Origin: an uncultured bacterium
Lineage (GTDB): Bacteria > Patescibacteriota > Minisyncoccia > Phycocordibacterales > JAACPR01
Direction of reading: 5' to 3'
DNA: 64,000 nt
NCBI GenBank assembly: GCA_937858275.1
Contig: CALLZK010000006.1
Coordinates: 13,389-77,388 of the forward strand
Position numbers and translations under genes: made by a program. Shown piece by piece: positions 19,124 to 56,256 of the stretch. The stretch's first letter is position 1; every line of letters starts with the position of its first letter. The notes under the pieces are model-generated. The model did not search any database and was not told the origin of the DNA. It saw only the letters and a list, made by a program, of their open reading frames with translations.

Positions 19124-19203
19124 AAATTAAATATTATAACAAAAAATAATAATTGCAAAATTTTGATTTTAAATAAATGTTTTTTTAAATAAATTCGTTT
19201 CAT

Positions 19204-19231
19204 TTGACAAAATATTATAAAGTTGTATTAT
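19204..19231 (+). promoter_or_regulatory. Sigma70-type promoter TTGACA-N16-TATTAT upstream of the 19291 ORF
   Basis: Read from sequence. Followed by a 5'UTR palindrome TTTCTCTGTGTAGAGAAA and SD AAGAGGAGAAGAGG. Confidence 0.5.
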
Positions 19232-19290
19232 ACAAAAAGTTTCTCTGTGTAGAGAAAAGTTAGTTCTTAAATAAAAGAGGAGAAGAGGTT

Positions 19291-19698
19291 ATGAGTTACT
19301 GCAACTGTCACGAGCAAATGTGCTATGAGGCACTTTTGCGAAGGGGCGAAAGGCTAAACAACAACATTTTGTCTCGCTATATCGGCGGACAAATCGTTGT
19401 AAACAGAAAAGTTCCCGGCACCAAAGGAACTCACCGAGTTGTTGGAAAAATCGAATCCATTTCCTTGGCCGGAATTGTGATCGAGGCTTCCTGCGACTGG
19501 GTCGCTCGAAAAAAACCGCTCGAAAAACTGTGGCGGAAAGATAATTCCACCGAAAATTTCGTCGAGGTGGAAATCAAGAAGGGCTGGACGACCATTTCTG
19601 ATGGTCGAATCAAAATCCCAACCTTATACGGTTGTGCGGTTTTGATACCGAAAGGATCGACCCTACTGATTGAGACCGGGGTCGACGAAATTAATTAA
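19291..19698 (+). CDS. Hypothetical protein with an N-terminal Cys cluster (CNCHEQMC); G+C well above flanks
   Basis: ORF with strong SD, consensus promoter and downstream terminator; compositionally foreign. Confidence 0.45.
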   Translation: MSYCNCHEQMCYEALLRRGERLNNNILSRYIGGQIVVNRKVPGTKGTHRVVGKIESISLAGIVIEASCDWVARKKPLEKLWRKDNSTENFVEVEIKKGWTTISDGRIKIPTLYGCAVLIPKGSTLLIETGVDEIN

Positions 19699-19731
19699 AT
19701 GGGGATGGAATAAAATATTCCCCAAAAAACA

Positions 19732-19775
19732 AAAATCGCTTGGTTCCACACCACCAAGCGATTTTATATTTATTT
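19732..19775. terminator. Bidirectional rho-independent terminator (AAAATCGCTTGGT / ACCAAGCGATTTT stem, 8-nt loop, T-runs on both sides)
   Basis: Perfect 13-bp inverted repeat between convergent genes. Confidence 0.7.
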
Positions 19776-19777
19776 TT

Positions 19778-20200
19778 TTATTCCAAAATTATTTCTTCAG
19801 TTTTTGAAATTTTTAAATCCAATCTAGCCAAAACATCAGGAACACCAACAAAACACTCTCCCTCGTCAAACAAAAAAGGAATTCCGACCACAGCAGGATC
19901 AATTCCACAATATTGCGAGACTGACATTAACTCACTAGAGTTATTTTTGTTTTTATAAATTTCTTTTTCTATAATTGAAATCTGATTTCTAATATCTCTT
20001 TCCTTAATTATTTCTTCAAGTTGAGCACATGCTGGGCAACCATCGCCATAATACAAAATAGTATTTTCTGCCAATTGCTCGATTTGAGAATCTGACAAAA
20101 TTACAAAATCTTGATTTTGTTTTTTATTAAACCAAAATACACCATAAATCAAAACAATTGCGGTAAGTAAAACTGAAATAATAACTATTTTTTTATCCAT
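19778..20200 (-). CDS. Membrane-anchored thioredoxin-fold protein (CPAC redox motif)
   Basis: N-terminal TM then YGDGCPACAQ CxxC motif. Confidence 0.5.
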   Translation of the reverse strand: MDKKIVIISVLLTAIVLIYGVFWFNKKQNQDFVILSDSQIEQLAENTILYYGDGCPACAQLEEIIKERDIRNQISIIEKEIYKNKNNSSELMSVSQYCGIDPAVVGIPFLFDEGECFVGVPDVLARLDLKISKTEEIILE

Positions 20201-20267
20201 AACAAATTTAATTTAAATAAATAATAAATTTTATATTAACATTTATAATCAAAAAAACCAATGGGTT

Positions 20268-53472: not shown

Positions 53473-53496
53473 AAAGATATATTAATGTTATTAAAA

Positions 53497-55137
53497 TTAC
53501 TTAATCATTCTCAGCAATTTTCTAGCTCTTTTTTCCATTTCATCAACATATTTTTTGAAATCAACAACAGCGGACATAATTCCACCATCGATCAAATACA
53601 AAAAATCGTGTTTGTAATTTTCAACAAAAAACCTGTCGTGTGTTACCACAATTATTGTTCCATTAAATTCAGAGAGTGCCTGATCAAGTGCCTCTTGAGC
53701 TTCCATGTCCAAATGATTTGTTGGCTCATCCAAAATCAAAGTATTCACATTCATCGCAGAAAAATATGCCAAAAGAAGTCTGGCTCTACCGCCAGGACTA
53801 ATTTCAGAAATTTTATTTTTAACCTGATCCTCATCAAAACCAAAGTGTAGCAATTTATTTTGTAAAAGAGATCGTTCTGTCGGAATCTTTTGACCCAATT
53901 CATCAATAGAAAAAACTCTTTTCATCATAAAACCAATTAATGTTTCTTTTTTTGGCAAAGACTCATGTTCTTGCATCAAATTTCCAATTTTGACTCCAGA
54001 TCCAATTTTCATTTCTCCAGAAATTTTTGGAATAACTTCGGTAAAAGTTTTTAGAAAAGTTGTTTTGCCAGAACCGTTTAGCCCTAAAATACATATTTTT
54101 TCACCAAAATTTATCTGTAAATTAATCGGCCCAATTGAAAAATCACCCTTATCATCATTATATCCGCAAATCAAATCATTTATTGAAATATTCAAATCAA
54201 GTGGAGAAATTTCTGGATCTATTTTTATTTTAAATTCACCTCTCAAATTGGGCTTTTTAATTTCTTCCATTCTTTTTATTCTACGATAAATAATTTTTGC
54301 ATCATGAAAAGAATCAGCCGCCTTATCACGATAATAACCTCTCAGCAATCTGTCATTATCTTTGGCTTGATGTTTTGCACCTTTTTCAGCTTGCTCTTGT
54401 TTTGTTTCAGCCAAATTTCGCAATCTCTGTCTTTCTTCTTTTTGCAAAATATGCATTTGCAATTGTCTGGACTGTTCTTTTGCTTTATTAATTAAATAAT
54501 CCAAATATTTACTGTTTGTAATTTGAATTGTTCTTTCTTTCCAATCTATTTCAAAAATTTTATTACAAACATTATTTAAAAACTTTTTATCATGAGAAAC
54601 AATAATAAAAGCTGAATCAGTTTTTTTCAAAAAATCTTCAAGCCAAATTAGTGCTGGTAAATCAAGATTATTTGTTGGTTCATCCAGCAACATCAAATCT
54701 GGATTTTTAAGCAAAACCGCAGTAAGAAAAACTTTGGTTTTTTGTCCACTTGAAAGATCGCCAATTTTTTTGAATTTTGTTTCGCTAGATAAAGCAAATC
54801 CAGAAAACATAATTTCTATATTTCTATCAAATACATCTTGCTGTTTTTGATTTATAATCTTTTCACTTAAAGCGGTTTTTTTTATGTAATCAAAAACATT
54901 TAGAGAATTAAATTGTTCAGTATCTTGCGGAACAAAACCCAAAACACAATTTTTATGAATTTCAATATTTCCAGAATCGGGTTTTTCTATTCCAGCCAAC
55001 ATTTTTAGAAGTGTTGTCTTGCCTGTTCCATTATAACCAACAAGAGCAACTTTGTTTGCTCTTTCCAAATTAAAAGAAATTTTATTTAAAATTTTTTTAT
55101 TTCCGTAATATTTAGTTATATTTTTTACTTTTAACAT
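53497..55137 (-). CDS. ABC-F family ATPase (tandem ABC domains, EttA/Uup-like)
   Basis: Two Walker A sites (GYNGTGKTT, GLNGSGKTT), two LSGGQ-type signatures, an inter-domain linker and no TMD. Confidence 0.85.
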   Translation of the reverse strand: MLKVKNITKYYGNKKILNKISFNLERANKVALVGYNGTGKTTLLKMLAGIEKPDSGNIEIHKNCVLGFVPQDTEQFNSLNVFDYIKKTALSEKIINQKQQDVFDRNIEIMFSGFALSSETKFKKIGDLSSGQKTKVFLTAVLLKNPDLMLLDEPTNNLDLPALIWLEDFLKKTDSAFIIVSHDKKFLNNVCNKIFEIDWKERTIQITNSKYLDYLINKAKEQSRQLQMHILQKEERQRLRNLAETKQEQAEKGAKHQAKDNDRLLRGYYRDKAADSFHDAKIIYRRIKRMEEIKKPNLRGEFKIKIDPEISPLDLNISINDLICGYNDDKGDFSIGPINLQINFGEKICILGLNGSGKTTFLKTFTEVIPKISGEMKIGSGVKIGNLMQEHESLPKKETLIGFMMKRVFSIDELGQKIPTERSLLQNKLLHFGFDEDQVKNKISEISPGGRARLLLAYFSAMNVNTLILDEPTNHLDMEAQEALDQALSEFNGTIIVVTHDRFFVENYKHDFLYLIDGGIMSAVVDFKKYVDEMEKRARKLLRMIK

Positions 55138-55200
55138 ATAGTTTCAGTATTCAAATATTTTTTAAAAACAAATATTTGCCTTATTTTTAATCATAATTTA

Positions 55201-55233
55201 AAAGGTGTTGCAATGCAAACTTGCAACACCTTT
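55201..55233 (-). terminator. Hairpin AAAGGTGTTGCAA / TTGCAACACCTTT after the 55268-56134 gene
   Basis: Perfect 13-bp stem with a 7-nt loop. Confidence 0.5.
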
Positions 55234-55267
55234 TCTGCACCCCCTTTCTTTGTTTGGGATAATTTTG

Positions 55268-56134
55268 TTATTGAAGGAACTCGTCGATTATGGGATTGCC
55301 GGTAGTAGAAGGAACTTCCACTACCCACCAATCTTTTCTCAAACCGACCATCAGAGGTTTTTGAGCTGCGGGAATCAAATCCTTTACAGCCAACCAAAAC
55401 CACTCATCAAGCAAATTTGATTGCTCAGATAATCTCAAAATTTGTAACTGAAACTCGATGGCTTCAGCAACTGTTTTGGATTTCACCCAATCCATAAACA
55501 CTTGAGCATCAGGCATGTTGGGCAATCTGACCCAATCGGGATTTCTCAACCCGACTCGAAGAGTCAAAATTTGCTTGACCAATTCATCTTCCAGTTTTCC
55601 GAGCATTTTTTCTTCATCCCCAATTGGCTGAAGTTCGATCGGAAAATCGAACAAAGATGTTCCACCGAGAATTCCCTGAACAAATTCAAGAAACCTCGAT
55701 GATGGATGTCGGCTATCAAAAAGTGGTTTATCCCACTGCACAAAATCATCTCGTGAGACCGAGATGAACCAATCCTTGTTTACCGAAATAGAGTCGATGT
55801 TTCTTACCTCGGGAAATTGTGCATACACAAATTCCCAAAAGAAACCTCGAAATACATTCCTTTCAGTATTTGCTCTCAATAATTTTTCGGCAAATTTTTT
55901 GCACGAAAATTCGTTGCAGGTTCCACTATTGTGAGCTCGCTGATGCTCTTCCCCCATTCGATCGATTGCAACTGAGCAATCTTTAGCAAAAGACCAAAAT
56001 CTTTTTGCAACAGGGTTTTCGATCATGCCAACGACCGATTTTTCTGGCGAAATATCGCCGGTCGGCTCGTGATGCACATCAGGACAAGAACCATCAAAAA
56101 TCGAGTGGACGGTTTTAATCATTAAACGACTCAT
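55268..56134 (-). CDS. Hypothetical soluble protein, clearly elevated G+C
   Basis: ORF, GAGGAG RBS, promoter P2; no recognisable domain. Confidence 0.45.
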   Translation of the reverse strand: MSRLMIKTVHSIFDGSCPDVHHEPTGDISPEKSVVGMIENPVAKRFWSFAKDCSVAIDRMGEEHQRAHNSGTCNEFSCKKFAEKLLRANTERNVFRGFFWEFVYAQFPEVRNIDSISVNKDWFISVSRDDFVQWDKPLFDSRHPSSRFLEFVQGILGGTSLFDFPIELQPIGDEEKMLGKLEDELVKQILTLRVGLRNPDWVRLPNMPDAQVFMDWVKSKTVAEAIEFQLQILRLSEQSNLLDEWFWLAVKDLIPAAQKPLMVGLRKDWWVVEVPSTTGNPIIDEFLQ

Positions 56135-56188
56135 ATTAATCTCCTCTGTTTGTTGTTTTTACATTTTAAAGAACCAAACTTAATCGAC

Positions 56189-56217
56189 ACAATAACACAA
56201 ATTAAATTTTGTGTCAA
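56189..56217 (-). promoter_or_regulatory. Promoter/operator element P2: TTGACA-N17-TATTGT with the palindrome ACACAAAAT..ATTTGTGT
   Basis: Near-identical to P1. Confidence 0.5.
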
Positions 56218-56256
56218 ACAAAAATAAATACGAAATTGGAGTCAAAAAAAGTTGTT

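Follow-up and report, generated by a model that had tools for sequence, protein, structure and literature searches.

Why do a few small genes in an AT-rich bacterial chromosome carry expression signals that the genes around them lack? The question is raised by a 64-kb window, the whole stretch of DNA analysed here, from contig CALLZK010000006.1 (GCA_937858275.1) of an uncultured Candidatus Paceibacterota bacterium (Candidate Phyla Radiation, CPR; Patescibacteria; ~30% GC). The window has a G+C content of 29.7%, and the genes it carries are chromosomal housekeeping genes (MreB, PriA, Def/Fmt, CysS, phosphoketolase, acetate kinase, P-type ATPases, Mur ligases, ABC-F and LysS). Among these genes stand five units, here termed M1 to M5, in which a promoter and a leader with a Shine-Dalgarno (SD) motif precede a single open reading frame (ORF1 to ORF5). 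A preliminary description took them for self-contained units of promoter, ribosome binding site, gene and terminator, scattered among native operons and driven by a family of near-identical promoters. We found good support for self-contained units carrying lineage-restricted genes, the composition of ORF4 being only mildly foreign. The more interesting result, missed in that description, is a split between a leaderless core and SD-led accessory genes, rather than a promoter family. In our reading, which we hold to be rather likely, the modules are moron-like, horizontally acquired orphan accessory genes that carry donor-type expression signals in a leaderless-type host.

SD motifs are confined to G+C-atypical genes

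The 40-60 nt 5′ of every gene start were tabulated for the 62 genes of the window. An SD motif lay upstream of exactly seven of them, namely ORF1 to ORF5 and the genes starting at 9772 and 10385, and when the window was searched from end to end for an SD with a start codon and an ORF, no further SD-led gene turned up. Predicted duplex energies with the anti-SD were -5.9 to -9.0 kcal/mol for the seven SD-led genes and -3.5 kcal/mol or weaker for the 55 natives, without overlap (Mann-Whitney p = 1.7e-5); with -8.5 to -9.0 kcal/mol for ORF1 to ORF5, the unusually strong SD claimed for each of the five was confirmed. The same seven genes hold ranks 1-6 and 9 of 62 in G+C content at third codon positions (GC3; p = 1.2e-5). 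Twelve native genes upstream of the window, including MraZ, GreA, PBP2, MreC, MreB and RRF, were SD-less as well, which brings the count of SD motifs to 0 of 67 native genes sampled (55 in the window and 12 upstream).

In native genes, a TGnTATAAT box ends 6-9 nt upstream of the ATG, and a conserved -35 element is missing from their promoters. The spacing of 6-9 nt before an ATG is strongly enriched, being that of 22 of 83 -10-like hexamers (p = 8e-8) and, among the TG-extended ones, of 16 of 24 (p = 3e-13). Bacterial leaderless transcription has a published signature, a Pribnow box ~6-8 nt ahead of the start codon ('group C' of GeneMarkS-2, PMC6028130), and we read the native genes as leaderless because their -10 boxes match it in position. 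An exact TTGACA with a properly spaced -10 box was present at five of the seven atypical genes vs 3 of the 55 native ones (p = 1.7e-4). The -10 half is generic; therefore it is the -35 element, the leader and the SD, and not the -10 box, that distinguish the G+C-atypical genes. A literature search returned no description of a leaderless or SD-less organisation in Patescibacteria, which is no proof of novelty.

Native genes (examples at 3196, 24271, 27726, 30377, 41559, 45781 and 47843), even those that start only 12-30 nt behind the preceding gene, are SD-less and have a TGnTATAAT box of their own 6-9 nt before the ATG. Such boxes suggest, as far as sequence can tell, gene-by-gene leaderless transcription rather than classical polycistronic operons.

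Anatomy of the modules

The elements of the seven SD-led units are as follows.

M1
19204..19231, + strand: promoter, TTGACA-16-TATTAT, 11/12 consensus positions
19238..19290, + strand: leader, ~53 nt from the inferred start site, small 5′ hairpin, SD AGAGGAGAAGAGG
19291..19698, + strand: ORF1, 135 aa, N-terminal Cys cluster, GC 0.46, GC3 0.53; orphan, only in this Paceibacterota population
19732..19765, no strand assigned: bidirectional intrinsic terminator 3′ of ORF1

M2
23617..24270, + strand: whole ORF2 module, 654 nt, between convergent pilin-like and 119-aa genes
23679..23706, + strand: promoter, TTGACA-16-TGtTATAAT, 12/12 consensus positions plus extended -10
23713..23798, + strand: leader, two hairpins (z = -2.3), SD GGGAGAGG
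23799..24179, + strand: ORF2, 126-aa lipoprotein, lipobox LLGC, GC 0.49, GC3 0.55

M3
51892..51925, - strand: promoter, TTGCTT-16-TGtTATAAT, native-type extended -10 and poor -35
51780..51885, - strand: leader, ~106 nt, hairpins, SD AAAGGAG
51201..51779, - strand: ORF3, 192-aa multi-pass membrane protein, GC 0.42, GC3 0.45

M4
52845..52873, - strand: promoter, TTGACA-17-TGtTATTGT, 10/12 plus TG; spacer inverted repeat ACACAAA-N6-TTCGTGT
52769..52838, - strand: leader, CAACAAACA then AAGGAG
51965..52768, - strand: ORF4, 267 aa, acidic, hydrophobic segments at the N- and C-termini, GC 0.34, GC3 0.27
51913..51956, - strand: terminator 3′ of ORF4, CCCCCCGC...GCGGGGG plus T-run; overlaps the M3 -35 region

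M5
56189..56217, - strand: promoter, TTGACA-17-TGtTATTGT, 10/12 plus TG; spacer inverted repeat ACACAAA-N6-TTTGTGT
56135..56182, - strand: leader, unstructured, CAACAAACA then GAGGAG
55268..56134, - strand: ORF5, 288 aa, soluble, GC 0.42, GC3 0.40

M6
9686..10203, + strand: whole module, TTGACA-17-TATAAT, leader with CAACAAACA plus AAGGAG
9772-10203, + strand: EamA-like ORF, 143 aa, GC 0.39

M7
10325..10675, + strand: whole module, TTGACT-17-TAATGT, SD AAAGGA
10385-10675, + strand: orphan ORF, 96 aa, GC 0.41

M6 and M7 have the same build as M1 to M5 and had been overlooked. The five promoter sites described earlier were all present at the positions given, with their hexamers checked in the sequence. 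They fit the sigma-70 pattern (TTGACA/TATAAT at a spacing of 16-18 nt, with an optional TGn), M3 just with TTGCTT and TGtTATAAT, and the TTGCTT of M3 sits within the T-run of the preceding terminator. The leaders of M1 to M5 are 48-106 nt long, their SD motifs lie 6-9 nt 5′ of the ATG, and a hairpin with a T-run terminator follows all five ORFs. A palindromic leader element had been proposed for each of the five; hairpins were seen in M1 to M4 and none in M5, and folding was better than that of shuffled sequences only for M2 (z = -2.3) and M3 (z = -1.8), a modest effect. Rfam covariance models gave no match to the leaders at gathering score, and at E <= 1 just noise-level snoRNA, miRNA and TD-1 cis-regulatory matches. 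The G+C content of promoter plus leader is 0.25-0.34, the compositional shift being confined to the coding sequences (0.34-0.49).

We propose that RNA polymerase with the housekeeping sigma factor would use the TTGACA and the -10 box to produce a leadered mRNA, which the 5′ hairpins, where present, would stabilise. The unstructured CA-rich tract together with the SD would recruit the 30S subunit via anti-SD pairing, and the terminator would insulate the unit from its neighbours. On native messages, ribosomes would start at the 5′-terminal AUG of a leaderless mRNA.

Composition and products of the G+C-atypical genes

All five ORFs had been called compositionally foreign. This holds for ORF1, ORF2, ORF3 and ORF5, whose GC3 z-scores are 9.2, 9.8, 6.9 and 5.6 (native mean 0.193, sd 0.037), and barely for ORF4. 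Four of the seven module products are membrane proteins or lipoproteins, the EamA-like protein of M6 and ORF3 being polytopic membrane proteins; ORF1 and ORF5 are predicted to be soluble. No family in Pfam, NCBIfam, PHROG or PADLOC matched ORF1 to ORF5, EamA being the sole family found among the module products. Searches with ORF1, ORF2 and ORF5 in 5.8 billion and 1.84 billion proteins returned self-matches and one ORF5 homologue of 53% identity, with no real homologue of ORF2 among the 1.84 billion representative proteins, and scans of viral contigs with ORF3 and ORF4 returned no relatives. The AlphaFold model of ORF5 was unusable (2-sequence alignment, pLDDT 42.6).

The ratio of nonsynonymous to synonymous substitution (dN/dS) was 0.28 for ORF3, compared with its copy in a sister strain (contig L005, below), and 0.20 for ORF5, compared with its homologue in a distant lineage (L004, below); both genes are under purifying selection. 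Non-coding G+C-rich RNA was considered as another identity for these segments and rejected, since the ORFs are long, have signal-peptide or membrane features and show dN/dS of 0.2-0.28.

The ORF1 start in the NCBI protein HMO78807.1 lies nine codons downstream of ours (126 aa vs 135 aa), and ORF2 (23799-24179) is uncalled in the ENA contig L001. Gene callers appear to mishandle SD-led atypical genes in an SD-less genome. The consequence for annotation is that genes of this kind are missed or given a wrong start when a caller is tuned to a single start model.

Comparison with related genomes

The same Paceibacterota population is represented by at least four independent assemblies. Four ENA/Logan contigs (L001-L003 and L029) are at least 99.9% identical to the window, and the NCBI metagenome-assembled genome (MAG) GCA_035327505.1 (contigs L005 and L030) is 99.95% identical in the shared parts. 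A chimeric assembly was rejected as an explanation, since assemblies from ENA, Logan and NCBI agree in the arrangement, with >=99.9% identity. A related species with 35% GC (GCA_035327525.1, contigs L023 and L024) has an orthologous ATPase that is 73% identical. An ATPase-based synteny scan of genome contigs gave no match, and an ABC-F scan of metagenomes gave distant loci only (<=55% identity), which came without the neighbouring genes.

The split was found again in the related species. As in the window, its native genes are SD-less and have their TGnTATAAT box 6-9 nt upstream of the ATG, and by the same motif test six small ORFs are SD-led, with GC3 of 0.43-0.59. Two more atypical ORFs (GC3 0.38 and 0.50) have just partial SD-like sequences, and two of the atypical ORFs have TTGACA promoters. 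Both regimes occur elsewhere in Patescibacteria: L009 and L011 look leaderless, and L008 uses AGGAGGTG. One L008 locus has TTGACAAAAATATTAAA, a hairpin leader and AAAAGGAGGTGA followed by a 66-aa ORF, and its -35 element and spacer start match M2 for 17 nt.

A comparison of orthologous loci had been recommended to look for insertion polymorphism, and some modules do differ in presence. Around the ATPase, L023 and the window have their genes in the same order. L023 lacks the ORF2 module, and its 122-aa and pilin-like genes are 11 nt apart; their orthologues in the window flank the 654-nt module, and no target duplication was found at this insertion. ORF1 belongs to a four-gene block (Glrx-like, ORF1, CMAS, NmrA) that is missing between the ATPase and photolyase genes in L023. 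An extra 215-aa ORF (GC3 0.41), with TTGACA-17-TATAAT and the SD GAAAGGGTGG, is present in L005 and not in the window.

Another contrast between close strains concerns ORF3. Identity of L005 to the window is 99.95% until 51894, inside the M3 -10 box, and resumes at 49540; the divergent stretch in L005 also has purD and includes the extra 215-aa ORF. The L005 homologue of ORF3 is leaderless, with TGTTAAAAT ending 6 nt before the ATG as in native genes, and the M3 leader is absent. The two ORF3 copies are mosaic, identical over residues 11-145 and divergent at the ends, and the breakpoints fall one within ORF3 and one within a histidine-kinase-like gene. Judged by the sequences, the difference looks like homologous recombination, not site-specific insertion. 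On either side of the leaderless L005 homologue stands a copy of a 25-nt direct repeat, TTTTATATTGCGGGGGTTGCTTTTT (13985-14010 and 14655-14680 in L005), which equals the 3′ half of the ORF4 terminator and is single-copy in the window.

ORF5 has one homologue (53% aa identity), which occupies the same position after a DsbD-like gene in L004, a lineage of 67% nucleotide identity. It has TTGACA and an SD; its GC3 of 0.26 is far less atypical, and dS between the two is saturated.

Relatedness of the promoters

The promoters had been presented as a near-identical family, which overstates their likeness: M3 is without TTGACA, and no motif is common to all five. Likewise, the pattern TTTGACA(C)AAAATATTA...GTTAT(A/T)AT, described as shared by all, does not hold for the five, GTTATAAT being found just in M2 and M3. 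TTGACA-N0-2-AAATATTA, a pattern defined post hoc after the sequences had been inspected, occurs in M1, M2 and M4 only (3 matches in the window vs 0.04 expected).

Some resemblances are specific. The 20-nt identity between M2 and M3 (TTAAATATGTTATAATATAA) was confirmed; the 64 kb contain just one other exact 20-mer repeat, which belongs to a coding motif conserved in P-type ATPases. Between M4 and M5, an alignment extends over ~52 nt of promoter and early leader and scores highest of 780 pairs of upstream regions (BLAST: 80% identity over 51 nt, E = 4e-6); the two share the spacer inverted repeat ACACAAA-N6-TT(T/C)GTGT, while their proteins are unrelated (E = 1.2). The CAACAAACA tract stands directly before the SD in M4, M5 and M6, which are 3 of its 5 occurrences in the window. 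The TGTTATAAT -10 half is the host's generic promoter element, located 6-9 nt before many native ATGs. Taken together, the resemblance of the promoters is partly generic, made up of the sigma-70 consensus and the host's usual TGTTATAAT -10 box, and the likeness of M4/M5, of M2/M3 and of the CAACAAACA tracts is real relatedness via duplication or recombination of regulatory segments. The caveat given in the preliminary description, that the motif might be simply this organism's generic promoter, is thus true of the -10 half and not of the -35 element, leader and SD.

Origin of the modules and alternative explanations

Under the favoured reading, horizontal acquisition of moron-like accessory genes, the donors are most likely higher-G+C, SD-using organisms, plausibly other Patescibacteria or their mobile elements. 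Because no donor was found and three ORFs are homologue-less, we infer transfer from composition and presence/absence only, together with its direction and donors; the transcription start sites are putative and the use of the SD is presumed. The anatomy, the composition, the contrast between SD-led and leaderless-type genes, the differences in presence between genomes and the purifying selection are seen in the sequences themselves.

Several points weigh against this reading. Donor searches identified none, and three ORFs are essentially without homologues anywhere. The AT-richness of promoter and leader is host-like, and these parts may have arisen or been reshaped in the host instead of being imported. 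The compositional signal of ORF4 is weak (GC3 z = 2.2, rank 9/62). The ORF5 locus is old, because a syntenic SD-led homologue exists in the distant L004, and ORF5 is therefore long-resident or replaced at its locus, not recently inserted; the high G+C of the window copy points to a xenologue, a gene of foreign origin that took the place of an earlier one, and less to a first arrival. The leaderless state of the natives and the actual use of the SD are read from sequence position alone. Finally, the gene sample comprises 74 genes of this genome (62 in the window and 12 upstream) and 24 of the relative, which is less than a whole genome.

Among the alternatives, we regard it as highly unlikely that the modules have nothing but generic promoters, that is, a consensus promoter with chance likeness in AT-rich DNA and no special link. 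The TGnTATAAT half does stand before natives, for example as TTTGTTATAATAT at 18032 and as TGTTATAAT at 24271, 27726 and 45781; totals of promoter-like matches were no higher than in shuffled sequences (43 vs 38.6; 67 vs 57.1), and the 12 nt in which M1 and M4 match are no more than chance would give (E = 0.45). However, the exact TTGACA with a proper -10 box is enriched at the atypical genes, and leader and SD are exclusive to them, by which this explanation is largely refuted; the rank of the M4/M5 pair, the near-unique M2/M3 20-mer and the excess of TTGACA-N0-2-AAATATTA also speak against it. A co-regulated set, with an operator around or between the hexamers for one regulator, is compatible with a foreign origin and seems to us improbable. 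A common regulator had been offered earlier as one possibility, and it may still apply to sub-groups: M4 and M5 drive unrelated proteins and yet share ~52 nt, including the inverted repeat between -35 and -10, a possible repressor site judging from its sequence; M1, M2 and M4 have TTGACA-N0-2-AAATATTA in common, and four of the seven products are membrane proteins or lipoproteins. In a search for a shared operator, only sub-group motifs were recovered (the M4/M5 repeat with its 52 nt, and 14-16 nt in M1, M2 and M4) and none in all modules, M3 and M6 lacking any such motif. Moreover, the ACA...TGT symmetry follows automatically from a -35 that ends in ACA and an extended -10 that starts with TGT, the promoter of the ORF5 homologue in L004 is without the inverted repeat, and no adjacent regulator gene was seen.

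Two further explanations concern the history of the genes. That they are native, long-resident genes, SD-led for special (high or conditional) expression and kept G+C-rich by selection, strikes us as quite improbable. ORF5 speaks for it, with TTGACA and SD kept at the same locus in the distant L004, saturated dS and a dN/dS of 0.20, as does the host-like composition of promoter and leader; against it, GC3 values of 0.40-0.55 vs 0.19 are far beyond any expression-linked codon bias in the window, and the lower GC3 of the L004 homologue means that high G+C is not intrinsic to the gene. In addition, L023 cleanly lacks the ORF2 module, other Paceibacteria have no homologues of ORF1 and ORF2, and ORF3 is leaderless in the sister strain. 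Site-specifically mobile cassettes, moved by a recombinase and a boundary repeat like integron cassettes or tRNA-targeting islands, are very unlikely to account for the modules. M6 and M7 lie in a repeat-separated array by a tRNA-Asn gene (described below), and the repeat of this array is found again before SD-led GC-rich ORFs in L023 and after the orthologous tRNA-Asn in L027. However, module self-BLAST and nhmmer found no repeat copy at 13-64 kb, hence none flanking M1 to M5; no target duplication was found at ORF2 and no integrase in the annotated parts of the window; the repeat has no attC-like hairpins (z about 0), and L005 appears to differ from the window through mosaicism by homologous recombination. 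Nor was there any sign that the promoter module is itself the mobile unit, as had been suggested earlier; no flanking repeats, target duplications or recombinase were found at M1 to M5.

Beyond the acquisition of single moron-like genes, we put forward a wider picture tentatively and think it unlikely as a whole: a two-regime genome, in which a leaderless, SD-less core, transcribed from -10-only promoters next to the ATG, coexists with small, G+C-rich, SD-led orphan cassettes. These would bring a canonical -35/-10 promoter, a CA-rich leader and a terminator, circulate among Patescibacteria, partly enter via the integron-like tRNA-Asn array, near which no integrase is recognisable, and be then dispersed or domesticated by recombination. 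ORF3, with its 106-nt SD leader here and leaderless in the 99.95%-identical strain, is a possible example of domestication.

Should the split extend to the whole genome, the accessory pool of an uncultured CPR bacterium could be recognised in the sequence by a simple marker, its mode of translation initiation, and the question arises whether SD-led foreign messages are favoured, tolerated or silenced by a ribosome that serves an SD-less leaderless core. The leader swap at ORF3 between strains is a natural experiment on the re-wiring of acquired genes. The cargo (lipoprotein, membrane proteins, transporter) makes up a surface repertoire expected to be relevant to the interaction of an episymbiont with hosts and phages.

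Comparison with known systems

A phage moron (Hendrix/Juhala concept) is reportedly an additional gene that lies between the genes of a phage and brings a promoter and a terminator of its own. The modules resemble morons in being autonomous promoter-gene-terminator units whose composition is unlike that of their neighbours, in differing in presence between collinear relatives, with the ORF2 module standing where L023 has an 11-nt gap, and in carrying accessory or uncharacterised cargo. In contrast to morons, they neighbour chromosomal housekeeping genes (ATPase, CMAS, ABC-F, DsbD-like, NT5C) and not a prophage, no meaningful PHROG match was obtained, and ORF3 and ORF4 lack viral-contig relatives. 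The contrast also extends here to translation initiation (SD-led vs leaderless), which is outside the moron concept. The modules work like phage morons, but they are not morons, because their setting is chromosomal.

The native genes resemble GeneMarkS-2 group C (PMC6028130) in their Pribnow box 6-9 nt before the start, and the genome likewise has a minority of genes of atypical composition. In group C, mainly described for Actinobacteria and Deinococcus-Thermus, internal or leadered genes use an SD (PMC6028130), whereas here 0/67 natives do and the SD coincides with atypical composition.

With integron arrays, the modules share small, mostly orphan single-gene units of differing composition, and the repeats of the tRNA-Asn array are all in one orientation. 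They differ in that M1 to M5 have no boundary repeat and each has its own promoter, and in that the array repeat resembles a tRNA 3′ end and has no hairpins, no IntI-like gene was seen, and the anchor is a tRNA gene, not attI. The array resembles tRNA-associated islands in starting at the tRNA-Asn 3′ end, in its tRNA-3′-like repeats in the orientation of the tRNA and in being variable between genomes. It differs from them in its single-gene units (0.4-0.9 kb) vs large islands, in a repeat that is no copy of the tRNA end and is conserved across species, and in having no adjacent integrase; M1 to M5 are outside this comparison.

A cassette array anchored at tRNA-Asn

Separately from M1 to M5, an array was found at 5.5-12.2 kb, 3′ of tRNA-Asn (5414-5487). 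It consists mostly of single-gene units of 0.4-0.9 kb, delimited by repeats from 6.9 kb. A repeat of ~31 nt, CAGGTTCGAAC(G/A)TCCTTCACTAGACGGAGCC (CAGGTTCGAACGTCCTTCACTAGACGGAGCC), precedes each array unit; its likeness to the tRNA-Asn 3′ end is limited to CAGGTTCGAA and GGAGCC. The copies are as follows.

6978-7009, + strand: repeat copy
7726-7767, + strand: repeat copy
8531-8569, + strand: repeat copy
~9646-9678, + strand: repeat copy (weak)
10283-10321, + strand: repeat copy
10773-10812, + strand: repeat copy
11183-11222, + strand: repeat copy
12090-12126, + strand: repeat copy
22597-22558, 22171-22132 and 20060-20020 of L023, - strand: repeat copies before SD-led GC-rich ORFs
3124-3086, 2850-2813 and 2489-2452 of L027, - strand: repeat copies downstream of the orthologous tRNA-Asn in a different Patescibacteria MAG

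Two nhmmer profiles found no copy elsewhere in the window. M6 and M7 are inside the array, with the repeat a few nt 5′ of their -35 elements. The PriA-Def-Fmt-HPF-tRNA-Asn flank is common to the window and L027, and the array content varies between genomes. Folding of the repeat in the manner of attC was rejected, being no better than that of shuffled sequences (z about 0), and no integrase was found adjacent to the array or among the annotated called genes of the window. These observations indicate that the array may be a conserved acquisition hotspot, maybe integron-like or of a tandem-att type, which does not explain M1 to M5.

Three minor observations concern the array. The L030 contig (DAOLDF010000004.1) ends exactly at the tRNA-Asn 3′ end (window ~5484), where the array begins, as would be expected if the assembly broke there because the array differs between strains. 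One lone array cassette (10842-11192, + strand) encodes an MntA-like nucleotidyltransferase (HepT/MntA antitoxin type), with no HEPN partner adjacent. At 7022-7110 (+ strand), a TTGACA-16-TGgTATTAT promoter right after a repeat copy is followed, ~25 nt past the inferred start, by a hairpin and T-run terminator with no ORF between. This element could be a ~55-nt small RNA or an emptied cassette, and its terminator is common to a convergent NYN-domain gene (7123-7605).

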